Positions 39,408 to 56,982 of a stretch of DNA of 64,000 bases are shown in pieces. The stretch spans positions 51,957-115,956 of the forward strand of contig CACWSG010000001.1 in the NCBI GenBank assembly GCA_902763535.1, given 5' to 3'. Every line of letters starts with the position of its first letter. Position 1 is the first letter of the stretch. A model generated the notes under the pieces. The model made no database searches and had not been told where the DNA came from. It worked only from the letters and a program-made list of their open reading frames with translations. The stretch comes from an uncultured Pseudomonadota bacterium. Its GTDB lineage: Bacteria; Pseudomonadota; Alphaproteobacteria; RF32; CAG-239. A program made the position numbers and the translations under genes.

Positions 39408-39482
39408 GGTCCCATCGTCTAATGGTTAGGACATCACCCTTTCACGGTGGTAATATGGGTTCGAATCCCGTTGGGATCACCA
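39408..39482 (+). tRNA. tRNA-Glu (anticodon TTC); integration site of the downstream island
   Basis: GGTCCCATCGTCTAATGGTTAGGACATCACCCTTTCACGGTGGTAATATGGGTTCGAATCCCGTTGGGATCACCA. Anticodon loop CT-TTC-AC. A Rho-independent terminator follows at 39483-39520. Confidence 0.9.
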
Positions 39483-40990
39483 ATCGCAACACCCTCGATT
39501 TTCGGGGGTGTTTTTTTGTTTAAAGAATCTATCAAATCAAAAGGTTTTCTAAGGTTATAAGAGATTTTCCTATCCTTCATTTGCAAGTTCGAAAGTAAAA
39601 GTTTCAAAATCGCTCTTTTGGTCTCTACTTTCGAACTTTTGAAAATTTGGTAGGCATTATTCCCCAATGAAAGTATTGTTGATATTGCGATAGAGAAGTT
39701 TTTATCAGCCTCGGTCAATAAAGCAGACTTTCCCTCAAGTTCGTATTGTTCTTGTTTAACGTCTTCATTCATATCCCGATATTCTTCGGGCGTAATATGA
39801 CCTTCAAGCAGTAATGACCGCAATCGTTTAATCTTGTCTTGGCAATTGTCATATTTCTGACGAATTGCTCGCACTTCCTTATTATGAGCCTCATTTTGTT
39901 TATTGATGATTTTTTCCATATCAGCCTTAAGATATGGCATAATTTCTTGTGGAACGTGCAAATTCTTTAACTCACCTTCTATTGCCTCTAATGCAACATT
40001 TTCATTAATTTGAGGGTTTTCACAATTGCCTTTGAAATGCGAACACTTCAAATAGATATACTCCTTTCCGCTTGGTTTTGTTTTTTTATAGCTGCTGATA
40101 GTACAGCCACATACGCCGCAAGTCATAAGCCCTCTGAAAATAAAAGGCTCTTCAGTCGCCTTAAACGGTATTTTTTCTTCTGGTTTACGACCGTGCATAA
40201 TATCTTGGCAAGTTTGAAACAATGCAGGAGCAATGAACGTTTCATATTGATGCTTAAATACATTCTCCCTGTATATCATTTCCCCTATGTAAAATTTGTT
40301 GTTCAAAATACGATGAACTGCACTGGTATTTAATGGTTTACCGTTGTATTTACTCGTCAAACCCCATTCTTTACATTGTTTTACCATATCTTTTAATGAA
40401 TATAAGCCTGTTGCATAGCGTTCAAACAGCTTTTGTATAATTGGCGCTCGTTCATTATCAACAATAACATCAGCTTTACCATCTGGTTTTCTAACATTAA
40501 AATATCCTAAAGGAGCTCTATACATACAAAAACCGTGTTCGGCTTGATGATTCATACCACTAACAACGTTATCTCGCAAAGAAAGAACATAGTTTTGTGC
40601 CATAACGACATTTAAGCCTAAAATCGTTAAATCACCAGCTTTTGAATTTTTATCAAGCACCAAATTCTCTTGCACTAAGTGAAGTTCTAATTGACCGCTC
40701 TTACGCATTTCATCAATCATTGTATAGTTTTTGAAGTTACGCATTAAGCGGTCAGTTTTCAAACAAACCAGAGCTATACCACCACGTTGTTTCTTACAAA
40801 AAGCCAATATCTCCATAAAGTGCTTGCGTTCACCACGAGTGGAACTTTCAACCAGTTCAGCATCTTTTATAATATTTAAGCCTTTTCGTTCGCAGTATTG
40901 CTTCAACACTTCTTGCTGATTTTGCAACGAGTAGCCCTCTTGCGATTGCATAGTAGTCGATACACGACGTAATAAAACAGCATTTTTCAT
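39434..40990 (-). CDS. Large serine recombinase (integrase)
   Basis: N-terminal resolvase catalytic domain (VLLRRVSTTMQSQEGYSLQNQ…, catalytic Ser in RVST). Recombinase domain, Cys-containing zinc-ribbon region (CGVCGCT…CSHFKGNC) and coiled-coil. The last ~16 codons are antisense tRNA-Glu sequence. Confidence 0.85.
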   Translation of the reverse strand: MKNAVLLRRVSTTMQSQEGYSLQNQQEVLKQYCERKGLNIIKDAELVESSTRGERKHFMEILAFCKKQRGGIALVCLKTDRLMRNFKNYTMIDEMRKSGQLELHLVQENLVLDKNSKAGDLTILGLNVVMAQNYVLSLRDNVVSGMNHQAEHGFCMYRAPLGYFNVRKPDGKADVIVDNERAPIIQKLFERYATGLYSLKDMVKQCKEWGLTSKYNGKPLNTSAVHRILNNKFYIGEMIYRENVFKHQYETFIAPALFQTCQDIMHGRKPEEKIPFKATEEPFIFRGLMTCGVCGCTISSYKKTKPSGKEYIYLKCSHFKGNCENPQINENVALEAIEGELKNLHVPQEIMPYLKADMEKIINKQNEAHNKEVRAIRQKYDNCQDKIKRLRSLLLEGHITPEEYRDMNEDVKQEQYELEGKSALLTEADKNFSIAISTILSLGNNAYQIFKSSKVETKRAILKLLLSNLQMKDRKISYNLRKPFDLIDSLNKKTPPKIEGVAIGDPNGIRTHITTVKG

Positions 40991-43731: not shown

Positions 43732-44253
43732 TTACACCGCCTCAGCCTTGACAACTATCGTGTCCTCAACTGTCAGGTCATAAATCCTTGGCATATTGCT
43801 CGAACGTAGAAATCGCAAACCGTCAGAATCATTTAAATAAATTCTGTCTGTGGTTATTCGGTCAATCACGCTCCAATGGTCGTGTAGACCTTGTATGCCT
43901 ATAATCACGGCTGTATTCGGCTGTTTTGTTAGTGTCGATATTTTTTTGATGGCTGTTGTCGTGCGAGTTTTATCGTTGAATGGCCTATAATGCGTTAACC
44001 TGATATTGTCCAATTGTGATTGAATAATACCAAGATAATCCTCAACTTGTTCAACTTCTGAGCCTTCTTTATGGACTGCGTTTAATTTACGGTGTTTATA
44101 TAAGTATGCAATTATTTCTTGAAACCAAAATTTTACGTATTTCTTTTTAAAATTCTCCAAACCTTCTGTCGATAACAATGTCGCATTAATTGAGCTATAC
44201 ACACCACAGAGATTGTCGAGATTGCCTTGCGAAAAGTAAATATTCTTCATCAA
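43732..44253 (-). CDS. Stand-alone C39-like (papain-fold, clan CA) peptidase-domain protein
   Basis: Q-x7-CG (QGNLDNLCGVYSSINA), His motif GLHDHWSVI and downstream Asp. Paralogous to 56398..56982. Confidence 0.5.
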   Translation of the reverse strand: MMKNIYFSQGNLDNLCGVYSSINATLLSTEGLENFKKKYVKFWFQEIIAYLYKHRKLNAVHKEGSEVEQVEDYLGIIQSQLDNIRLTHYRPFNDKTRTTTAIKKISTLTKQPNTAVIIGIQGLHDHWSVIDRITTDRIYLNDSDGLRFLRSSNMPRIYDLTVEDTIVVKAEAV

Positions 44254-44573
44254 TATTCATCTCCTCTCATTATGGTTAGCACTCTGTTGGTAACGCTCTC
44301 ATCGGATATGTCGGGACTGAGGCATAAGTAGTCTAGGTCGTAGTAATCAATCTTCCAGAAGTATGTTGCCCCTTTGAAGTCTATAGCCCCGAAGTCGTGT
44401 TCTTGATTAGGATCATTATTTGCAGTGAATTTATCAAAAGTGCGAACTCGGTTTAACAGCTCAGCACGGTCATTGTCGTTTAACTCGCAAACACCAACTG
44501 TCAACATAACTTTGCCACCAGTGAATGTCTTGCGAAGTTTGTCGTTCAATAGTCGTATTTTACCAACACTCAT
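44250..44573 (-). CDS. Small hypothetical protein with candidate double-glycine leader
   Basis: 107 aa, N-terminus MSVGKIRLLNDKLRKTFTGG-KVM…. The Gly-Gly sits at residues 19-20 with hydrophobics at -4, -12 and -15. Translationally coupled (ATGA overlap) to the C39-like gene. Confidence 0.4.
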   Translation of the reverse strand: MSVGKIRLLNDKLRKTFTGGKVMLTVGVCELNDNDRAELLNRVRTFDKFTANNDPNQEHDFGAIDFKGATYFWKIDYYDLDYLCLSPDISDESVTNRVLTIMRGDEY

Positions 44574-44894: not shown

Positions 44895-45551
44895 TTATTT
44901 CAAATGGTTTAGTACCTCTTTTTTATGTTTATTGAAATAACTGATTATTTCTTGAGCAAATTGTCTGAATTGTTTTATATCTTCATCGCTTATTGTATCG
45001 GAATCATTTATTGAAACAGTATGTTGACTATCATTATAAGTGTCACAATCACAATTTTTAACAGCTATTAATTTCGATGTTTCTTGTATAATCGCAAAAT
45101 CGTCATTGTCCTGATTATTGATTGAGCTAAAAACACCTAGCTGTTTGTTTTGCCAATACATCACAACAGAAAAATTAATTTCAAAATGTTTATTTATTTC
45201 ATAAGATGCTGTAAATAATGAATAATCGCTTATATCATTTGCTAAATCAAAACAGTTATCTAAATCTGTAATATAAATTATATTATGATTTTCAATATCT
45301 AAGTCATTTACCAGATCTTCCCAAACGGCTTCCCATATTTGACGACACATAATCCAGCCGTCCGTTTTAAACTTCTGCAAAAACACCTTAGCTTGATAAA
45401 AGTTTTGATATTCATCAAACGAAATTTTGCTAGGTACTTCGGTATTGTCGAACATAGCTAAAGCTTTTATCGTATTATCTTTGCAAACTTTTTTTAAATT
45501 TTCAGGTATTTGTATCATTTTTAACACTCCCAATATAAAATTTTGTTCCAC
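44895..45551 (-). CDS. Hypothetical protein (218 aa), acidic
   Basis: Long ORF, overlaps the upstream gene by 31 nt (operon). No recognisable motif. Confidence 0.4.
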   Translation of the reverse strand: MEQNFILGVLKMIQIPENLKKVCKDNTIKALAMFDNTEVPSKISFDEYQNFYQAKVFLQKFKTDGWIMCRQIWEAVWEDLVNDLDIENHNIIYITDLDNCFDLANDISDYSLFTASYEINKHFEINFSVVMYWQNKQLGVFSSINNQDNDDFAIIQETSKLIAVKNCDCDTYNDSQHTVSINDSDTISDEDIKQFRQFAQEIISYFNKHKKEVLNHLK

Positions 45552-46306
45552 AATGAAGACCTGTAACGTTTCATATCTTCATCTTCAACCAGTCCGTCTA
45601 GGTTCTGTTCCCATAATTGCATAACATCACACCAGAGTATATTTTTCCAAGATTCTTTTTTTTCTTTTTTTGCATCAATATCTTTTTGAATATTTTTAAT
45701 AGTGATAACGACGAAGGTCAGCTCTTTACCTTTGGCAATTTTCTTCATCTGTTCCTCATAAACGCTTAATTCATTACCATCAATTACGGCATCAAATTTT
45801 ACTTCAATACATAAAGCTCCGCTATTCCATATAATTGTATTATCAATACGTTTTCGCCTTTTTTTCTTATCTTTGACATTTTTAGTAAGAACTTCGCAAG
45901 CACAATAATAACCATCTTTGGGAAGTTCTTTATTTTGATTTAATAATTTAAAAATAGCCTGTAAAAATGCTTTGCAGCTTTGTTGATTTTCGAGTAAAAA
46001 ATTTGATAATGCTTTTGTAAATTGTGGTTCTTTCAAATTTAAATAGCGATATAAAGGCTTATAACGGAATGAATGATGCGCTGTATAATTACCTAAAAAT
46101 GGAAAATCACTTAATAGATCTTCATATGTTTGATAACCGATTTTAGCATACTGCTTTGCTATATAATCGTGATAGTCTTGCAAAAACGATTTGACTTTTA
46201 AGTGATCCCCATAAAATGCTTGAATATATGGCAGACTTTGATGATATACATCATTACAATATACTTCGGATAATTGTGAAAAATATTTTTCTTTACTCAT
46301 TATCAT
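45521..46306 (-). CDS. Hypothetical protein with PD-(D/E)xK-like nuclease motif
   Basis: …IDNTIIWNSGALCIEVKFD… (D…E-V-K), embedded in predicted beta strands. 261 aa. Confidence 0.4.
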   Translation of the reverse strand: MIMSKEKYFSQLSEVYCNDVYHQSLPYIQAFYGDHLKVKSFLQDYHDYIAKQYAKIGYQTYEDLLSDFPFLGNYTAHHSFRYKPLYRYLNLKEPQFTKALSNFLLENQQSCKAFLQAIFKLLNQNKELPKDGYYCACEVLTKNVKDKKKRRKRIDNTIIWNSGALCIEVKFDAVIDGNELSVYEEQMKKIAKGKELTFVVITIKNIQKDIDAKKEKKESWKNILWCDVMQLWEQNLDGLVEDEDMKRYRSSLWNKILYWEC

Positions 46307-47409: not shown

Positions 47410-49899
47410 TTACGATATTTCATTCTTATTTTGATTTTTTGCTTCTTTTTCTATGGCTTTTTCTACTTTTTCAAATCCACTACAACCATCTTTAATAGCT
47501 TCATTCCAGTTAAAATATGCAACCCCTATATTTACCTTATTCCAAATATCTGTTAGATAATCTCTGAAAAGAATAGATTTACGGTATCTATCTTCAATTT
47601 TAAATGACTGAATTAGAGGAAATATTTCATCTCGAGTTATTGTATCCAAAATAGGCGTATCAATCGAAACCGCATCTAAATATGAAAACTCACCTATCCA
47701 CTTATATAAATGATATACACCTATACTTGTAACTCTAAATCCTTCTGGAATATCTCCACATAACACACCTGTTTTTCTTTCAAATTCTACCCTTCCAACA
47801 GATTCTATCAATTTTTTATTAGTAAGTCTTCTAATAGAATATTCAATTTGAGGAATTGTGTAACCATATTTTTGCATTTCGGTTATAATGTCTATAAATT
47901 TAACAAAACTATCGGTATCTTTTGTTGAATATTTACTTTCGAGATATGCGACAATTAGCGATGACAAAAAATGCTCTTTAATATCAGGAGATGAAATCTC
48001 AAATAAATTCATTGCTAGTGAAGTATCTTCATTAAAATAAGAGTAATCTCCTAAAATAGCTGCTTTTGAAAATTCGTGCAAAGGAATTAAATAATCATCT
48101 TCTTTACTAAAGGATATGATTTTATCACTATCTACATTAGTATTACTTATAAATTTTGCAATAAAATCCATTACTAATCGAACATTTCCACCTGTAATGT
48201 TTGATAATATTTCTCTTATTTCTTTATTATTTTTTATAGAAAATAAAAGGGATTTAATAAATACGACTATATCGCTCAAATCTAAACTAATATTTTCTAA
48301 AGGATGTATCTTTGTATTGCCTTGTGCTATTTTTAACGCAAATTCAAGACGTTTAGCCACAACTGTTTCTATCCTTGGTGGAAGTATAGTAAATACACGT
48401 TGAGTATATCCAGACAAAGAGCGCCCTCTCATTTTTGATTGATAAAAGGTTTCTGGGCGTAACGCAATAAAAGTCATCGCTTTCCATCCAGAAGCAAGTT
48501 CTTGAGCTATAACAAAAGCTTCATCCTGTATGTCTGTAGTCCTTTGATCCGCATTATCAATAGTAATGATAATTTGTTTTTTATGAGCTTTGGCTATATG
48601 CTCTATTGCTTTACACAAATGGCTAGATTTATCTGAGGTTAATTTATCAAGATATGAGATAAGTTTTTCATTATATAATTTTGGATTCTGCTGCAATAAA
48701 TCTTTATAAATGCCATTTTCAAATCTCTTTATTTCAGAATGATAAATACCTTTTACAAAATTTGAAGAATAAATATCTATTTTGTGATTGTCCAAAAGTT
48801 GCTTTTCTATATCTAGCAATATAAAAGATTTTAAATCATTCGATAAAGTACCACTATCCCCTAAATCAATATATAAATACAGTGATTTTTCAAACTCTTC
48901 TTTAGCATTTAAATATTTTAAACTTTTAAGAAAGCTTGTCTTTCCAACTCCTACATCTCCTATTACTACAATAGGTCTCTTTGATAAAGCCTCAGCGTAT
49001 ATCTTATCAGAGAGAAGACCTTGTTTTTTATTTTTTTGCATTAAGCATTCTATATTCGTATCGCTATCCTGCGGAAACAAGTGAGCATAACGTTTGGATA
49101 AAATATCTTTACTAATAAGGGCATCTTGAGATAAGGCTCCACTTTGGCAATAGCATTCCTGAAAAAATTCTTCTTCAATTTCTGGAGAAGTTATCAAATC
49201 TTGTAGTAATAATTCAGATAAAATTTCTAAACTTTTTTGATTGTCATTTTTATATCTTATATCTCGATAATTTAGAATATATTGAGATAGTTTACTAGGT
49301 AAAAATTTTCTTTCACTTGCTATAAAAAAGTCATATAGATTTCTATCTTTAATTCCGTAAATTGAAAGGTATTGCCATACAAGCTGGAAATTTGTTAATA
49401 AATCATCTTTGTTTCTTATAATAAATGCATCCCCATCAAGAGGAGGAATACCATCTCGTCGTGATGCTAAAAAGGCTATAATTTGGTATGAATTTATAAT
49501 AACTGCAAACTCGACACCTCGTTTAGAACAATAATCAAATACTTGATTAACGGCATCTTTAGCGGCAGAACTTGTTTTTATAATTGATTGTATAGAACAG
49601 ATATATTTCTCTCTTCCGTTTGATGGAAAATCAAATTGTATACTATCTTTTTTAGCTTCAACAATACAACATTTAGGATGTCCTAGTTCATAATCGGTAT
49701 AGTCTCCATTGTGATATTTTTCAGTTTCAATATTTTCTTTATTCCAGCCTAGACAATATACCAAAAAATCATCTATAAACTGAAACCTAGTATCTTCTTC
49801 TGTCCAATTCCAAGAAGCTTTAGTGCTTTCTTCGACTAAGGCTTTTAGGTTCTCTAGACCTATCTTCATATCGTTCACATTACTTATAAAATTTGCCAC
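47410..49899 (-). CDS. Fusion protein: N-terminal HsdR-N/Mrr-like PD-(D/E)xK nuclease domain plus P-loop NTPase (STAND/AAA-like), with a long C-terminal region
   Basis: Nuclease motif …DYTDYELGHPKCCIVEAKK…. Walker A IVVIGDVGVGKTSFLK. Walker B-like QIIITIDNADQ. 829 aa and extremely AT-rich. Directly downstream, on the same strand, of the m5C methyltransferase. Confidence 0.55.
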   Translation of the reverse strand: MANFISNVNDMKIGLENLKALVEESTKASWNWTEEDTRFQFIDDFLVYCLGWNKENIETEKYHNGDYTDYELGHPKCCIVEAKKDSIQFDFPSNGREKYICSIQSIIKTSSAAKDAVNQVFDYCSKRGVEFAVIINSYQIIAFLASRRDGIPPLDGDAFIIRNKDDLLTNFQLVWQYLSIYGIKDRNLYDFFIASERKFLPSKLSQYILNYRDIRYKNDNQKSLEILSELLLQDLITSPEIEEEFFQECYCQSGALSQDALISKDILSKRYAHLFPQDSDTNIECLMQKNKKQGLLSDKIYAEALSKRPIVVIGDVGVGKTSFLKSLKYLNAKEEFEKSLYLYIDLGDSGTLSNDLKSFILLDIEKQLLDNHKIDIYSSNFVKGIYHSEIKRFENGIYKDLLQQNPKLYNEKLISYLDKLTSDKSSHLCKAIEHIAKAHKKQIIITIDNADQRTTDIQDEAFVIAQELASGWKAMTFIALRPETFYQSKMRGRSLSGYTQRVFTILPPRIETVVAKRLEFALKIAQGNTKIHPLENISLDLSDIVVFIKSLLFSIKNNKEIREILSNITGGNVRLVMDFIAKFISNTNVDSDKIISFSKEDDYLIPLHEFSKAAILGDYSYFNEDTSLAMNLFEISSPDIKEHFLSSLIVAYLESKYSTKDTDSFVKFIDIITEMQKYGYTIPQIEYSIRRLTNKKLIESVGRVEFERKTGVLCGDIPEGFRVTSIGVYHLYKWIGEFSYLDAVSIDTPILDTITRDEIFPLIQSFKIEDRYRKSILFRDYLTDIWNKVNIGVAYFNWNEAIKDGCSGFEKVEKAIEKEAKNQNKNEIS

Positions 49900-50056: not shown

Positions 50057-51289
50057 TTACTCTGCAGCCATTTCTAGTTGCAGTCCATTTGTCATTTTTT
50101 CATTTAAACAATCCAACATTTCAATTAAGCAACACCCTATATGATAACTTAAATTAACCGGAACAGCATTACCTATTTGTTTATACTGTGATGACATTGT
50201 TCCTTGAAATTTCCAATTATCAGGAAATGATTGAATTCTTGCATATTCACGAATGGTAAGTGGTCTCGTTTCACTTGGATGACAGCGTTCAGTTTGCTTT
50301 TGAGCTGGTGCGCAAGTCAACGTTAAACTCGGTTCATCCCAAGATAAACGTCTTGCCATACCAGTTTTGCCACCAGATAAATGAAAACTGCCTTTCATAT
50401 ATTCTTTTTGAACATCAATCGGTAAATCTCGCCAATACCCCCCCTCTGGAACCAATGACAATATTTCAGCTTTACGTTTAGGATAGCTTTGACCTTCTGA
50501 TTTAGGACAATCTTTTAACGCAGCTCTTAGTGAAACTGTATAATTTTTCTCTGTTGGAAAGATAAAAGGAATATTCAAATCATTACGAATTGCAATAATT
50601 ATTAATCTTTCTCTTTTTTGCGGCACATCTAAATACTGTGCTCTCAAAACCTTATATTGCACATTATAACCAATTTCTTTCAAGGCATTAACCATTGTTT
50701 TAAGGGTTCTGCCATTATCGTGTTTCAACAATCCTTTAACATTTTCACCAACAGCAATTTTGGGCATTGTTTCTTTAACGCAGCGAGCAAATTCAAAAAA
50801 CAATGTTCCTCTGGTATCTTCAAATCCCATACTTTTACCAGCATAACTGAAAGCTTGACAAGGAAATCCTGCTTGAACTATATCGACTTTACCTTTCCAA
50901 GGAGAAAAATCTACATTATGGACATCTTCGTGAATTATGTTAGTTCCTTTAGGAAAATTATGTTGCAAAGTTGCGACACAATCTTTATCTATTTCGTTTA
51001 GTAAGATGTGTCGAATACCTGCATTTTCAAACCCAAGAGCTGTTCCTCCAGCTCCTGCAAATAGTTCTATCGCTGTATAAGGAGACTTAAGTTTGGATTC
51101 CAACACTTTGAACTCTTCATCGGATTTATTATTTAATTTATCCAATAAGGCAAAAACTTCGTCATCATTGAACATACGATGATTTTTATCAGAACGTTCT
51201 GCCTTTATTAATCCTTTTTTTTCCCAACGTCTAATTGTATCAATAGATAAATTAAGTTTTTTACTTACTTCGTGAATAGATAACCACAT
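50057..51289 (-). CDS. DNA (cytosine-5)-methyltransferase with N-terminal MerR-like HTH
   Basis: Motif I ELFAGAGGTALGF, IV GFPCQAFSYAGK, VI ENVKGLL, VIII QKRERLIIIA, X QIGNAVPV. N-terminus MWLSIHEVSKKLNLSIDTIRRWEKKGLI is an HTH. Confidence 0.9.
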   Translation of the reverse strand: MWLSIHEVSKKLNLSIDTIRRWEKKGLIKAERSDKNHRMFNDDEVFALLDKLNNKSDEEFKVLESKLKSPYTAIELFAGAGGTALGFENAGIRHILLNEIDKDCVATLQHNFPKGTNIIHEDVHNVDFSPWKGKVDIVQAGFPCQAFSYAGKSMGFEDTRGTLFFEFARCVKETMPKIAVGENVKGLLKHDNGRTLKTMVNALKEIGYNVQYKVLRAQYLDVPQKRERLIIIAIRNDLNIPFIFPTEKNYTVSLRAALKDCPKSEGQSYPKRKAEILSLVPEGGYWRDLPIDVQKEYMKGSFHLSGGKTGMARRLSWDEPSLTLTCAPAQKQTERCHPSETRPLTIREYARIQSFPDNWKFQGTMSSQYKQIGNAVPVNLSYHIGCCLIEMLDCLNEKMTNGLQLEMAAE

Positions 51290-51376
51290 TATTAATCTCC
51301 TTAATTAACTGAATACAATATAAAATAACCCCTGCATATATGCAAGGGTTATTTTTAAGATATTAAATCAATATAA

Positions 51377-52087
51377 TTAATTAACTGATTCTTCTATTTC
51401 TTGAGCTAAACTGTCTATTGCATCTTCAATAATAGCTGTACCATCAATCTCATTCGCAACTTCGGCAATATTATTAATCAATGCTTCATAAAAGTCTTCA
51501 TCACCTGTCAATCTATACCAGAATTCTTTACCTGCATAGACGGGATTAGACTTATTTATGGTTTTATACATTGTTGATAAATCTTCATTACTACCATAAA
51601 AGACCCCAACAACACAGTCAACATCAGGATTGAAATCTCTTAAACCATTTGTTCGTGCTAAATTTCGGATTGCTTGGAAATGGTTTAATATTGTTGTAAT
51701 ATCATCCTTATTTATAGTATTTGGACCAGCCTTAATCTGGCAATATTTGTGTCTTCCATCAACTTGATCTGTGAATTCAATATCAATACCAGATGTTGTT
51801 GAGGCAAAACCATTTAAAACGTCTTTGCAAAAAGATTGCATCTGAGTACCAAAAATAGTATTTATCGATGTTCCTAAAACTCGAGGATAAATCAAAGCCT
51901 TTGCAATGTTTTTACTATCAGAATTGCCAAAAGCAAAATTTGCTAAATATTTCTGTAAAAAAGGATTAGGATTGAATTCCTTTAAGTGTTTAGCTTCTTC
52001 AGTTTTCTTTTTATGATTCTCAACAATATTGTCTCTAAAAAATTGTTTGGCTTTTTGCAGTATAAGTTGTTTTTCCTCTGGGGTCAT
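51377..52087 (-). CDS. Putative type II restriction endonuclease, cognate of the adjacent m5C MTase
   Basis: 236 aa from internal Met with GGAGA RBS. Candidate PD…(D/E)xK: GIDIEFTDQVDGRHKYCQIK. Position and orientation are typical of an R-M pair. Confidence 0.45.
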   Translation of the reverse strand: MTPEEKQLILQKAKQFFRDNIVENHKKKTEEAKHLKEFNPNPFLQKYLANFAFGNSDSKNIAKALIYPRVLGTSINTIFGTQMQSFCKDVLNGFASTTSGIDIEFTDQVDGRHKYCQIKAGPNTINKDDITTILNHFQAIRNLARTNGLRDFNPDVDCVVGVFYGSNEDLSTMYKTINKSNPVYAGKEFWYRLTGDEDFYEALINNIAEVANEIDGTAIIEDAIDSLAQEIEESVN

Positions 52088-52246
52088 TCTTATTCTCCGT
52101 ATAACAAACACGAGTAACATTTTATCTTAATTACCCAGAAAAGCAAGTTATAATTGGCTTTATTCTACATAATTAAACAGCAAAAAACCAAATTAATCTC
52201 TATATAATTGTAAAATGTATTTAACAAAATCCATAAATAAGAAATA

Positions 52247-52927
52247 TTATTTGTAGCTATTCAAGTCTATTTTATATTTTGAACAAAAATCGTAGATATT
52301 TTTAACTGTATAACACTTAATTCCTGTTTTTAAAGCAAATTCTTTTGCTCTATCATCATAACCATTCTTTACAAAATATGTTAAAATATAAGGATGCACA
52401 ATTGTTTTGTTTTCATCTGAAATATTCTTTATTACCCCTCCAACAAATTGTTTCATAGAGTTAAGACCTATACATTTTTTATCAAAACACTTGACTTGTG
52501 AATAAACGTCTATAATACCTAATATATCATCCTCCAATTTTCCTTTAATATCAATTGTATTAGCATCTTCTTGAGAATTATCAGCAACTTCTTCTACTTT
52601 AATTTTTTCACTTTTATTTAAAATATCACAACAGAGTTTTGCATATGATTTTGGACTTAATAGGTTTAATGCCTTACAAAATTCCATATATTCTTTTTTT
52701 CCTTTTATAACTACAAAATTTTCTTTATCATCAAACTCTACTATTTCATCGTCCTGTTCTCTAAAGAAATTTTCTAATATTCCTAAATGGTTATTAATCT
52801 CATCTTCTGAAATACTATCATCTATTTCTTGAACTACATTTGTAATTATCTTAGCAAAAGATCCAGATGTAGGATTACTACAAGCCATTTTATATATTTC
52901 GTTAAATGAAGGAAATTTGTTAACCAT
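52247..52927 (-). CDS. Hypothetical protein (226 aa) co-transcribed with the ParB-like gene
   Basis: Start codon abuts the upstream gene's stop (52927/52928). No recognisable domain. Several Cys pairs. Confidence 0.4.
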   Translation of the reverse strand: MVNKFPSFNEIYKMACSNPTSGSFAKIITNVVQEIDDSISEDEINNHLGILENFFREQDDEIVEFDDKENFVVIKGKKEYMEFCKALNLLSPKSYAKLCCDILNKSEKIKVEEVADNSQEDANTIDIKGKLEDDILGIIDVYSQVKCFDKKCIGLNSMKQFVGGVIKNISDENKTIVHPYILTYFVKNGYDDRAKEFALKTGIKCYTVKNIYDFCSKYKIDLNSYK

Positions 52928-54064
52928 TTAATTATCCTTAAGTTTTTTAATTGCCATTATCTTTTTTTGCACAAAATCCACCATATCTTCTACCAATTTA
53001 AAATCCTCATCACTAAACGATTGGATCGTTATAAAAGGCATAATATCAAACTCTGTTTTTAAATTTTCAATAGCCATTTTCCAATTATTATTGGGTTTTG
53101 AATTTTTAATTTCAAACTCTATCTCTTCTAATGTTTTATCTGTAGATAAAAAACTTTGATAAAACTTTGTATTTTCTTCTCTTAATAAATTAGATAATTT
53201 TCTCATACTTTTAGCTTCTGATAATTTTGGTGAATTATTTTCTCCTGTTGTTTCATTATACTTTCCTTTCATCCAAGAAATAAGCAATTCCAAATTATCT
53301 TTATTTAAACACTCAAAAGGATCATCTTGTATATCTAACCATTTTCTAATATTAGGACTTTTCATTGCTTCTTCAAAATAACTGTAATTATCAGGCGTAA
53401 ACGAAACATCTGTATCACCCTCAAGACTATTTGCCATTTCAAATAATTTCAGTGATCTTTTAGATTGCTTAACGGTTGCTTTTGTTATTCCCAACATATT
53501 ACTTATCTCTTCGTCAGAAATTTTATCTTTTGTTAATTTATTAATTAAAAGTGCTTTCTGATATGCTCCCCAAGATTTAACTCCTGATATATGCCTTATT
53601 CCAGGAATCAGCATATTATACGAAGCTTCTTTATCTTTATTGTCAACTAACAAAACATCTATGTTTTCCAAATCATTTTTCTCTTCTTTTGATAATGTAA
53701 TTTTTCCAACATTTTCCAAGTTTATTATAGATTTCAAAGCCGCAATTCTTCTATTACCTTCTATAACTACATATTTATTTTCAAATCCATTTATAGGTCT
53801 TACAACTACTTTATCTATAGGAAGAAAACCTACCTCAAGTATATTATCTCTTAAAGAAGATACTTCAAAAGATGGTAACAACATACGTTTTAACGTTTCT
53901 TCTTGAACTTTATCTTCTATTATTCTGTTTTCAGGAACTACGTAATTTTCCATATTAATCTCTAAAAAACGAGGATTATTAGGATCTAAATATAGATCAT
54001 TTAAGGCAATTGTTTTTTGTTTGAATTCATCTCTAGAAAAAGTTGTCATAATTACGCCTTCCAT
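52928..54064 (-). CDS. ParB/Srx-fold N-terminal domain protein with central HTH
   Basis: ParB box VVIEGNRRIAALKSI. HTH ISNMLGITKATVKQSKRSL. Long helical C-terminal region. 378 aa. No parA partner nearby. Confidence 0.55.
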   Translation of the reverse strand: MEGVIMTTFSRDEFKQKTIALNDLYLDPNNPRFLEINMENYVVPENRIIEDKVQEETLKRMLLPSFEVSSLRDNILEVGFLPIDKVVVRPINGFENKYVVIEGNRRIAALKSIINLENVGKITLSKEEKNDLENIDVLLVDNKDKEASYNMLIPGIRHISGVKSWGAYQKALLINKLTKDKISDEEISNMLGITKATVKQSKRSLKLFEMANSLEGDTDVSFTPDNYSYFEEAMKSPNIRKWLDIQDDPFECLNKDNLELLISWMKGKYNETTGENNSPKLSEAKSMRKLSNLLREENTKFYQSFLSTDKTLEEIEFEIKNSKPNNNWKMAIENLKTEFDIMPFITIQSFSDEDFKLVEDMVDFVQKKIMAIKKLKDN

Positions 54065-56397: not shown

Positions 56398-56982
56398 TTA
56401 TGACAACTGTTTGGCACTTATGAAAAAAATTCCTTCTTTCATAAGCTGGGTTTCTTTTGATGTTTTCTTTTTTCTTCTTGGTTTCCATGCCAAATTTGCG
56501 AAGTTTATCTTCAAAAAATGGTATGAATCTACCAAATAACTGACCGGAAATTTAACTTTTTGGAACACTGTCCAATGATCACCGGTTTTGGGTGTATCAA
56601 CTCTGACAATACAGGAATGATCTTTCCGCAACATCCATTGTCGCAAAAGCTGAAAAGTTTTCCTGAAAGTTAAGTTTTTCCAATCCGGCATGGCTGTAAG
56701 TTTTTTCCATTGTATTAAAATATGATAATTTTCTTTCATATAATCCCGCGCTAAAAGCAAATACTTTTCTTCCAACACGCAGGTAGTGCCGTGATTAACA
56801 ACTTGCTCAATCAAATTGTTATCAATAAGATATTTCATAAAACATCTGAAAAAGGCTTCTTTTTCGCTGCTTGTCATAACCTTAAAAGATGAACAGGCAT
56901 AGCCGACTGCATTTATAACGGCATAAATTCCACAAAAATAATCCAAAGTACCTTGATACGAAATCTGAAATTTTGCAGGCAT
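56398..56982 (-). CDS. Stand-alone C39-like papain-fold peptidase-domain protein (paralog of 43732..44253)
   Basis: QGTLDYFCGIYAVINA and GDHWTVF…YLVDS align with QGNLDNLCGVYSSINA and HDHWSVI…YLNDS in the other copy. Lies 21 bp downstream of guaC on the same strand. Confidence 0.5.
   Translation of the reverse strand: MPAKFQISYQGTLDYFCGIYAVINAVGYACSSFKVMTSSEKEAFFRCFMKYLIDNNLIEQVVNHGTTCVLEEKYLLLARDYMKENYHILIQWKKLTAMPDWKNLTFRKTFQLLRQWMLRKDHSCIVRVDTPKTGDHWTVFQKVKFPVSYLVDSYHFLKINFANLAWKPRRKKKTSKETQLMKEGIFFISAKQLS

Follow-up and report, generated by a model that had tools for sequence, protein, structure and literature searches.

A near-obligate pair of a ParB-like gene and an Mrr-type nuclease family gene as a candidate defence module

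The ParB/Srx types known in defence are DUF262 and DndB, and canonical ParB proteins with a helix-turn-helix (HTH) have so far been associated with segregation, nucleoid occlusion and gene silencing. What, then, is the role of a ParB-like gene that has no partition ATPase gene nearby and whose stop codon touches the start codon of a gene for a 226-aa protein? An earlier note drew attention to this arrangement in a 64,000-nucleotide stretch of DNA from an uncultured alphaproteobacterium (hereafter, the window), treating the 226-aa product as an orphan and placing possible nuclease chemistry in the ParB domain. Our analysis across related genomes locates a nuclease domain in the second protein instead, and on balance we lean towards a two-gene defence module.

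The ParB-like protein and the gene junction

Both ORFs were recovered on the minus strand at exactly the coordinates that the earlier note had given. The ORF of the ParB-like protein (52928-54064, minus strand) spans 378 aa, and its product probably has 373 aa: the second ATG, at 54049, is the likely start, being preceded by a GGAAGG Shine-Dalgarno sequence and used as the start in public gene calls. The ORF of the 226-aa partner occupies positions 52247-52927 (minus strand). Direct reading of the junction (52925-52945, minus strand) confirmed that the TAA of the ParB-like gene (52930-52928) and the ATG of the 226-aa ORF are contiguous; an AAGGA Shine-Dalgarno sequence for the partner lies 7 nt upstream of this ATG, within the end of the ParB-like gene. 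The abutting codons and the internal Shine-Dalgarno sequence point to translational coupling of the two genes. The junction is tight in most of 80 related loci, where the spacing ranges from -47 to +18 nt.

For the ParB-like protein, 435 homologues of uniform length (approximately 370 aa) were collected, and a 50%-identity representative library returned 431 matches at E ≤ 1e-30, rising to 1633 when the limit was relaxed to E ≤ 1e-10. Three motifs are invariant in the family: LDPNNPRF (residues 26-33), EGNRR (102-106) and PGxRHxSGxKxWGxYQ (154-169), the second of which falls within YVVIEGNRRIAALKS at residues 98-112 of the ORF at 52928-54064. A Box-I-like PNxPRF and a Box-II GxRRxxA(L) element can be recognized, and both Box-II arginines are invariant. 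The ParB box had been described as intact, which holds for the two arginines but not for the Glu of GERR, which is replaced throughout the family by an invariant Asn (EGNRR), leaving the box only partly canonical; similarly, the QPR of ParB appears as NPR. The Pfam ParB_N model gives 15.9 bits over residues 67-124, below its cut-off of 26.3 bits, and the NCBIfam models also score under their cut-offs (parB_part, 13.6 versus 58.45 bits; RepB, 13.6 versus 201.5 bits; PRTRC_parB, 18 versus 278.6 bits).

The AF2 model of the ParB-like protein has a pLDDT of 81.7, and Foldseek matches it best to KorB (8qa9), Noc (7ol9 and 7ng0), ParB (7bnk, 7bm8 and 6t1f) and Spo0J (1vz0), with E values of 2e-6 to 1e-4 over approximately 250 columns covering the N-terminal domain and HTH; KorB is the closest. 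The predicted fold is thus of the ParB/Noc/KorB type, a ParB/Srx N-terminal domain followed by an HTH, and resembles the solved clamps. Three lines of evidence support the HTH after the N-terminal domain in this modelled protein: the structural match, a designed HTH repeat that matches positions 170-198 of the family profile, and a weak hhalign match to the HTH of Spo0J (E = 0.024). The original description as a ParB/Srx protein with an HTH therefore stands. In Caulobacter crescentus ParB, the E102A variant binds CTP and does not hydrolyse it. The CTP-hydrolysis residues of that protein appear, by sequence alignment, to be replaced by invariant Asn in the ParB-like family (GERR to GNRR and QPR to NPR); with Asn at these positions, as judged from the same weak hhalign alignment, the NTPase activity of the ParB-like protein is uncertain.

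The partner family and its linkage to the ParB-like gene

The apparent orphan status of the 226-aa protein reflected a single-sequence search that returned two proteins, and was overturned by collecting the downstream genes of syntenic loci and by profile searches. Of these downstream genes, 70 of 73 fall into one BLAST cluster with the window partner, which BLAST (E values of 1e-10 to 1e-4) and a shared gene order tie to its relatives. On this evidence the 226-aa protein can be assigned, as a divergent and fast-evolving member, to a partner family with a PD-(D/E)XK domain of the Mrr_cat type (PF04471). The window protein itself reaches 13.8 bits on Pfam Mrr_cat (residues 90-170), under the 21-bit cut-off; the six relatives that were tested score 21.5-42.2 bits, above it. 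A precomputed PF04471 assignment exists for 24 of 27 partner-profile matches, relatives are annotated in their sources as ‘restriction endonuclease (Mrr)’, and in the PDB the partner profile is best matched by MspJI, an Mrr-like enzyme (4f0p, E = 0.0015). Because the partner carries the Mrr-type nuclease domain, nuclease chemistry does not have to reside in the ParB domain, where it had initially been sought.

The partner consists of a family-specific helical N-terminal domain (residues ~1-90) and an Mrr_cat-type PD-(D/E)XK core (~90-215). Its AF2 model has a low-confidence pLDDT of 67 and places an alpha-beta-beta-beta-alpha-beta core at residues 92-201; a fold search with this low-confidence model gave no significant match. 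The Mrr_cat catalytic signature consists of a Glu on helix 1, D...D on strand 2 and QxK on strand 3. The motif residues of the partner are D121, D126 (in TIDIKG) and Q144-V-K146, and among 66 partner sequences D126 and Q144 are conserved in 100% and K146 in 98%. Where the ‘FE’ motif has its helix-1 Glu, the window protein has Ala96, a loss shared with the related loci L001 and L004, so that the predicted nuclease activity of this copy may be altered or reduced. In two archaeal loci the N-terminal domain is kept and the C-terminal domain is a different one, an exchange that fits a design in which an adaptor is joined to a swappable effector.

Linkage of the two genes was assessed in 80 loci, drawn from genomes of numerous bacterial phyla and of four archaeal groups. 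An intact gene of the partner family follows the ParB-like gene in 70 of these, nearly always directly downstream and on the same strand. The other ten comprise one partner cut by a contig end, four that are split, two with the N-terminal domain only, one absence and two uninformative loci; a six-frame HMM search recovered the partner, intact or split, in most of the approximately ten loci that had seemed partnerless by greedy ORF calls. The earlier note had proposed surveying whether the 226-aa gene co-varies with the ParB-like gene across genomes, and it does: pairwise identities within the two families are correlated over 66 loci with a Mantel r of 0.93, which none of 2000 permutations reaches. 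The partner evolves faster, with a mean identity of 23% compared with 39% for the ParB-like protein. The 150 top-ranking representatives of the family included no ParB-nuclease fusion protein.

Conservation around the locus is confined to these two families, the next commonest neighbour family being present in just 10 of 81 loci. Close homologues of the pair (74%/64% and 64%/56% identity) occur in unrelated contexts, and the L004 pair adjoins an ABC transporter operon, with no Pbe, Dnd, MADS or RM genes. Conversely, the RM module beside the window pair, an EcoO109I-like restriction endonuclease (REase) with a MerR-C5-methyltransferase, is found without the pair on more than 20 contigs, where it lies beside Hachiman. 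The pair is therefore strictly a two-gene unit, near-obligately linked, co-evolving and independent of adjacent RM genes.

Genomic surroundings and competing explanations

The window pair is carried by an integrative element that also encodes serine recombinases. It occupies a low-GC island (26-33% compared with ~39%) that is bordered by a tRNA-Glu gene and a serine recombinase gene and holds the RM module and further defence candidates. The far end of the island yielded no att-like direct repeat of this tRNA-Glu. A promoter scan of the AT-rich window was uninformative (50 found, 46.7 expected), and the only strong terminator-like hairpin follows the REase gene, not the pair. Across the other loci, a descriptive tally of the variable neighbours includes RM, Dam, N4/N6 methyltransferases, PbeA/PbeC, DndH, MADS, pAgo, type IIG and serine recombinases, in line with the defence-type context suggested from the window alone. 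Because these neighbours differ from genome to genome (m5C, m6A and N4/N6 methylases, phosphorothioate (PT) systems), a simple modification-dependent trigger is not evident. An identification of the ParB-like and Mrr-like proteins as PbeB and PbeD was considered and rejected, as those are a 66-aa small disordered protein and a 152-aa DndE-like protein.

A ParB/KorB/Noc-like fold with an HTH, weak matches to the ParB and RepB models of NCBIfam and a location on a mobile island could suggest that the protein is the partition or maintenance ParB of an integrative element or plasmid, with ParA and parS encoded elsewhere and the nuclease an unrelated passenger. This explanation is very improbable and, in our assessment, largely refuted. 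As the earlier note had stated, no partition ATPase is evident: the deviant Walker-A ParA motif KGGxGK[ST] is absent from all frames of the 64-kb window, and no ParA family is among the conserved neighbours of the 81 loci. No parS- or operator-like palindrome stood out upstream of the pair in the window, the NCBIfam partition scores are far under their cut-offs (18 versus 278.6 bits; 13.6 versus 58-201 bits), and 72,556 plasmid records yielded only three distant matches, most loci being on large chromosomal contigs. A passenger would also leave the near-obligate, co-evolving nuclease partner unexplained. Less strained, although still improbable, is the idea that the pair serves as an accessory or sensor-effector sub-module of Pbe/CxC-ABC, Dnd, MADS or RM systems, non-functional alone and, for example, reading or enforcing the modification made by its neighbours. 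In L082 and L083 the pair is flanked by PbeA on one side and PbeC on the other, and in L078 it sits just upstream of both; DndC-like, DndH, mad3/mad8 and several methyltransferase genes recur nearby; and in the window the RM module starts 126 nt downstream of the pair with no terminator-like hairpin between them. However, no neighbour family exceeds 10 of 81 loci, close homologues of the pair such as L004, beside its ABC transporter operon, lack such genes, and the RM module of the window exists elsewhere without the pair.

We also considered a toxin-antitoxin or addiction system, in which the Mrr-type nuclease would be the toxin and the ParB-like HTH protein its repressor and/or neutralizer, in the manner of KorB. 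The regulator-first gene order, the overlapping or abutting stop-start junctions and the movement from one context to another all resemble such systems, KorB, the nearest protein in structure, is a clamp that represses transcription in a CTP-dependent way, and the faster evolution of the partner (mean identity 23% versus 39%) and the presence of serine recombinases on the integrative element of the window copy are in keeping with the idea. The pair might stabilize a mobile element or abort infection upon titration or degradation of the ParB-like protein; since this overlaps with abortive-infection defence, it is not fully exclusive of a defence module. We regard this explanation as unlikely: the two proteins are large for a toxin-antitoxin pair, the ParB pocket, with its invariant arginines, hints at an activity that depends on nucleotide and is not simple repression, and no conserved operator-like palindrome is evident upstream in the window.

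A candidate defence module and its relation to known systems

The reading that we prefer, with somewhat better than even confidence, is that the pair is a self-contained, horizontally mobile two-gene candidate module against phages or plasmids. It draws on how closely the two genes are linked and co-evolve, their status as the only conserved pair in otherwise unrelated contexts, their independence of RM genes, the conserved Mrr_cat residues, the structural match to KorB, Noc and ParB, the defence-related neighbours, the low-GC island of the window copy, the exchanged C-terminal domain in two archaeal loci and the PDC-M38A match described below. Weighing against it are the half-covered PDC-M38A model and the unmatched partners, the apparent Asn replacements at the hydrolysis positions, the loss of the helix-1 Glu in the window clade, the low-confidence partner model with its fruitless fold search, the absence of ParB-nuclease fusions among the 150 top representatives and the varied modification systems nearby. 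We infer nucleotide binding, clamp behaviour, physical contact between the ParB-like protein and its partner, cleavage of DNA and a sensed target along the following lines. The ParB-like protein would act as a DNA-binding, nucleotide-gated sensor or clamp, and the partner as its effector, a family-specific N-terminal adaptor fused to an Mrr-type (D...D...QxK) PD-(D/E)XK endonuclease. A ParB-like dimer may use its conserved Arg-rich pocket to bind an NTP, be it CTP or a different one, load on DNA and then close, and the closed clamp would recruit or license the partner nuclease, so that invading DNA is cut. In a bolder form, which we offer as a tentative and rather doubtful proposal, the pair would represent the first use of a canonical-type ParB nucleotide switch in immunity: a sliding clamp, NTP-locked through the invariant Asn at its hydrolysis positions, would load on invading DNA and carry or license the nuclease by way of the adaptor, with the effector exchangeable in archaea.

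We found no experimental report on the ParB-like/Mrr pair in the literature. The coupling of a canonical ParB architecture to an Mrr-type nuclease in a two-gene module is widespread among bacteria and archaea, where 431 or more clusters can be counted (50% identity, E ≤ 1e-30). Our analysis also revises how a fast-evolving nuclease family is annotated, one that appears as an orphan in single-sequence searches. If the module is defensive, it would offer a compact, tractable system for studying how a nucleotide-gated DNA clamp discriminates and destroys foreign DNA, give a function to a large family of ‘hypothetical / ParB-Srx domain-containing protein’ entries, and clarify what PADLOC matches to PDC-M38A represent. 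Should the clamp-locked form be true, nuclease delivery for immunity would join segregation, nucleoid occlusion, transcription silencing and toxins among the uses of ParB CTPases.

PADLOC already has an entry for the ParB-like family, the phage defence candidate PDC-M38A, a model that matches the window protein with E = 1.4e-48 over residues 15-367. The match covers model positions 8-357 of 715, and with the relatives L010 and L083 included (E ~1e-48) coverage is likewise confined to positions ~8-365; the partners of the window and of seven homologues (eight in all) match no PDC-M38 model at E ≤ 0.1. PDC-M38 is a two-gene phage defence candidate, derived by guilt-by-embedding from its location inside systems of the BREX, DISARM or type I RM kind (Payne et al. 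bioRxiv 10.1101/2024.01.29.577857). One PDC-M38 cassette, its composition readable as family numbers only, is headed by FAM_00005, the family that also heads HEC-01 ABC-ATPase cassettes. The half-covered model, the unmatched partners and the presence of FAM_00005 suggest that PDC-M38 may be related to the present pair but differently built. PD-Lambda-5_A matches ParB-like proteins of the family over the first ~170 residues (E values of 1e-13 to 1e-4); membership of PD-lambda-5 was rejected, as these matches span only the shared ParB N-terminal domain and PD-lambda-5 is a compacted RM+Abi system with a methyltransferase (Vassallo et al. 2022). Menshen combines DUF262 with an ABC ATPase and RNase-type effectors (PMC12065111). 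Both PD-lambda-5 and Menshen NsnA are thus defence systems with a ParB-superfamily N-terminal domain, like the ParB-like protein, but they lack the HTH and C-terminal domain of its family and the Mrr partner.

Each half of the pair has well-characterized relatives. The clamps ParB/Spo0J, Noc, KorB and PadC are the best structural matches to the N-terminal domain and HTH of the ParB-like protein and share both Box-II arginines with it. Unlike them, the ParB-like protein has no ParA, KorA or parS context, scores below the Pfam and NCBIfam thresholds and is accompanied by a nuclease; it has Asn in place of the hydrolysis Glu and, as far as a weak alignment indicates, probably of the Gln too, and a helical C-terminal domain of ~160 aa where canonical clamps have a short dimerization domain. 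Mrr and MspJI cleave DNA in a modification-dependent manner. The partner shares with them the Mrr_cat domain and the D...QxK signature, MspJI being its best solved relative, but lacks the Mrr_N winged helix and SRA-like readers and has instead the ~90-aa family-specific helical N-terminal domain and a near-obligate ParB-like neighbour; the window clade also lacks the helix-1 Glu.

As a whole, the pair most readily invites comparison with type IV restriction and PT-sensing defence by GmrSD, BrxU and SspE, in which a DUF262 ParB-superfamily NTPase (motifs QRxxxW, DGxQR and FxxxN) is combined with a DUF1524 HNH nuclease (PMC12065111). The earlier note had set the pair apart from DndB and from DUF262 proteins of the GmrSD type, and no Pfam or PADLOC model for DUF262, DUF1524, GmrSD, BrxU, SspE or DndB matches at E ≤ 0.1; the concept, by contrast, appears to be the same as in GmrSD, BrxU and SspE, realized with different domain families. 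By analogy, both would unite a nucleotide-binding, DNA-sensing domain of the ParB/Srx superfamily with an endonuclease effector in a defence-island context. The pair could then be a split, two-polypeptide analogue, with a canonical-type ParB protein taking the role of DUF262 and Mrr_cat that of HNH. GmrS and GmrD also occur as two polypeptides. The present pair differs in having EGNRR rather than DGxQR, a true ParB-type HTH, a PD-(D/E)XK domain of the Mrr_cat type rather than HNH, and separate genes in every locus examined.

A two-gene cassette with near-obligate linkage

The pair consists of two abutting ORFs on the minus strand, one encoding a ParB-like protein (52928–54064, −, 378 aa) and the other, directly after it, a 226-aa partner (52247–52927, −). 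At the junction (...AAGGATAAT TAA ATG GTT...) the ParB-like stop abuts the partner's start, and the partner's Shine–Dalgarno sequence sits within the ParB-like gene. The ParB-like protein contains YVVIEGNRRIAALKS and likely begins at the second ATG (54049), which follows GGAAGG and gives a 373-aa product, the length in public gene calls. A six-frame search of the 64-kb window revealed no ParA-type deviant Walker A motif. The earlier note's description is therefore borne out. The pair is a real feature rather than a chance arrangement.

We fetched 80 loci with ParB-like homologues, one genome per species, and called the genes that follow. At nearly all of them a gene of 225–320 aa comes next on the same strand, the junction spacing running from −47 to +18 nt. 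With a six-frame HMM search picking up partners absent from the ORF calls, the partner was intact at 70 of the 80 loci, split by frameshifts at 4, cut by a contig end at 1 and absent at 1, with 2 uninformative. At two archaeal loci, the gene that follows the ParB-like one (L071:7032–7862 and L084:7108–8010) keeps the partner's N-terminal domain of ~85 aa (HMM positions 12–84, E = 4.8e-5) and carries a different, unannotated C-terminal domain, which suggests that effectors are swapped while the adaptor is conserved. The two families' pairwise identities are correlated (Mantel r = 0.93; 0 of 2,000 permutations), with the partner evolving faster (mean identity 23% versus 39%). Clustering of all genes within ±6 kb at 81 loci showed conservation of these two families alone; the commonest other neighbour family reached 10 of 81. 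The neighbourhood conservation that the earlier note had proposed to survey is thus present, as is co-variation of the two genes. The closest homologous pairs (74%/64% and 64%/56% identity, ParB-like/partner) occur in unrelated settings, one beside serine recombinases and one beside an ABC-transporter operon. The pair is translationally coupled, near-obligately linked, co-evolving and modularly mobile.

Domain identities of the two proteins

The ParB-like family is large and very uniform (~370 aa), with 435 matches in a word-indexed search; an exhaustive search of 50%-identity representatives gave 3,102 proteins at E ≤ 1e-3, 1,633 at E ≤ 1e-10 and 431 at E ≤ 1e-30. The motifs LDPNNPRF, EGNRR, PGxRHxSGxKxWGxYQ and YSYFEE are invariant. 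The Pfam ParB_N score is 15.9 bits, below the cut-off of 26.3 bits. The AlphaFold2 model (pLDDT 81.7) matches KorB, Noc, ParB and Spo0J in Foldseek (E = 2e-6 to 1e-4) over ~250 columns spanning the ParB/Srx N-terminal and HTH domains, and sulfiredoxin weakly; GmrSD, BrxU and SspE structures were not among its best 50 matches. No ParB–nuclease fusion was found among the best 150 family representatives. The sole long member among these, P0234 (655 aa), looks like a partial tandem ParB-like duplication, with two LDPNNPRF/GNRR-type halves, rather than a nuclease fusion.

In a weak profile alignment (E = 0.024) with what we take to be the B. subtilis Spo0J sequence, EGNRR aligns with GERR and ISDEEISNMLGITKATV with the HTH. 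The GERR glutamate of C. crescentus ParB is required for CTP hydrolysis, and the E102A mutant binds CTP and remains clamp-locked. The ParB-like family has an invariant Asn at the position aligned to this Glu and retains both arginines, making nucleotide binding plausible and hydrolysis uncertain, as judged from sequence.

The partner's orphan appearance arose because a single-sequence search gave two proteins only. Of 73 downstream proteins, 70 group in a single BLAST cluster, and the 226-aa protein of the window is among them, matching several members at E = 1e-10 to 1e-4. Family members pass the Pfam Mrr_cat threshold (21.5–42.2 bits versus 21); the window partner scores a sub-threshold 13.8 bits over residues 90–170, the same place as in its relatives. 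D126 and Q144 (100%) and K146 (98%) are conserved in a 66-sequence alignment, and D121 is invariant in a curated subset; by alignment, these residues read as the Mrr/MspJI-type D...D...QxK signature. The best solved relative of the family profile is MspJI (E = 0.0015), and a profile search retrieved 27 proteins, 24 with precomputed PF04471 and some named 'restriction endonuclease (Mrr)'. A weak AF2 model of the window partner (pLDDT 67) contains the expected alpha-beta-beta-beta-alpha-beta core at residues 92–201; its fold search gave no significant match, with nuclease folds heading the list. One reservation concerns this copy: in the window clade (the window and loci L001 and L004), the helix-1 Glu of the family 'FE' motif is replaced by Ala. 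BLAST cluster, profile and conserved residues place the partner in an Mrr_cat-type family, and it is predicted to be a divergent Mrr-type nuclease. The earlier note's interpretation, which took the partner as an unknown, holds in part.

Defence and mobile-element context

The window copy of the pair sits in a low-GC island (26–33% versus ~39%) bordered by tRNA-Glu(ttc) (39408–39482, +), into which the 3′ end of a large serine recombinase ORF extends (39434–40990, −). No direct repeat matching this border was found at the other island end near 55.5 kb. Beginning 126 nt downstream of the pair are genes for an EcoO109I-like REase, a MerR-HTH C5-methyltransferase and an 829-aa AAA_22 ATPase. The REase (247 aa as an ORF, 236 aa as called publicly) and the methyltransferase, whose HTH is N-terminal, form a type II RM module (50057–52120, −; compare loci L093/L094), with a strong terminator-like hairpin (51355–51322) between their genes. 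On more than 20 metagenome contigs, this module (methyltransferase of the same 90%-identity cluster) occurs without the pair and is flanked by Hachiman (HamA and helicase), a different defence island, so the RM module and the pair are separate modules. Since Hachiman there takes the place of the 829-aa P-loop gene (47410–49899, −; GDVGVGKT; strong phrog_14719 match, 1.8e-74), the latter is probably another uncharacterised defence gene. Its product has a weak HSDR_N-like N-terminus. A PDDEXK_4 nuclease-family gene (45521–46306, −; PADLOC candidate PDC-S26, 7.5e-9) and an overlapping gene for a 218-aa protein that matches no family (44895–45551, −) are possibly another two-gene candidate. Two small paralogues of 173 and 194 aa (43732–44253 and 56398–56982, both −; BLASTP 6e-9), neither with a Pfam match, share a Cys/His-dyad-like pattern, LDxxCG(V/I)Y ... 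DHW(S/T)V; the first lies within the island and overlaps a DUF3768 gene (44250–44573), and the second is just outside it.

Elsewhere, variable neighbours include the CxC-type ABC ATPase PbeC and PLD-helicase PbeA, DndC-like and DndH genes, Dam and N4/N6 methylases, DpnII, a type IIG enzyme, the MADS genes mad3/mad8, pAgo and serine recombinases. These loci set the pair in a defence and mobile-element context.

Proposed function and known systems

We regard the cassette as a widespread two-gene candidate defence module. We propose that a ParB-like dimer would bind NTP through its Arg-rich pocket and use its HTH to engage DNA; given the Asn substitutions, it may form a long-lived clamp. Its helical C-terminal domain may recruit the partner or activate it. 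In the partner, the private N-terminal domain would act as adaptor and the Mrr-type domain would cut DNA. Neighbouring methylases of several types and phosphorothioate systems argue against one fixed DNA modification as target.

A partition function is poorly supported; the ParB-like protein falls far under the thresholds of NCBIfam partition models, and its family is nearly absent from plasmids (3 distant matches in 72,556 records). The family's phage matches are distant ParB-domain proteins, some in P2-like phages. A toxin–antitoxin or addiction module is a rival that overlaps with abortive infection. The pair could also be an accessory to larger modification-based systems: it is embedded between PbeA and PbeC at loci L082 and L083 (3856–10278) and lies directly upstream of both at L078 (5992–12438). 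PbeA and PbeC are parts of the phosphorothioate-associated Pbe system, of which PbeB and PbeD are small proteins, ruling out the pair as these components.

In PADLOC, the ParB-like protein matches PDC-M38A (E = 1.4e-48) over positions 8–357 only of a 715-position model, as do its relatives with the same partial coverage, and none of 8 partner proteins matches a PDC-M38 model; the pair therefore cannot be taken as an established PDC-M38 system. The PDC systems are 145 untested candidates from 'guilt by embedding' (Payne et al. bioRxiv 10.1101/2024.01.29.577857), PDC-M38 being given only as two-gene cassettes, FAM_01405>>FAM_00135 and FAM_00005>>FAM_00745. PD-lambda-5, a methyltransferase-based RM and Abi hybrid, was rejected, as PD-lambda-5_A matches are confined to the ParB N-terminal domain. 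Our literature search found no description of a ParB and Mrr pair. A ParB-superfamily sensor with a nuclease is a kind already known, of which we regard this pair as a new variant. Whereas GmrSD, BrxU, SspE and Menshen have the DUF262 type of ParB domain, the protein described here does not, and its modelled N-terminal domain and HTH instead resemble KorB, Noc and ParB; the interest lies in the use of this canonical architecture.
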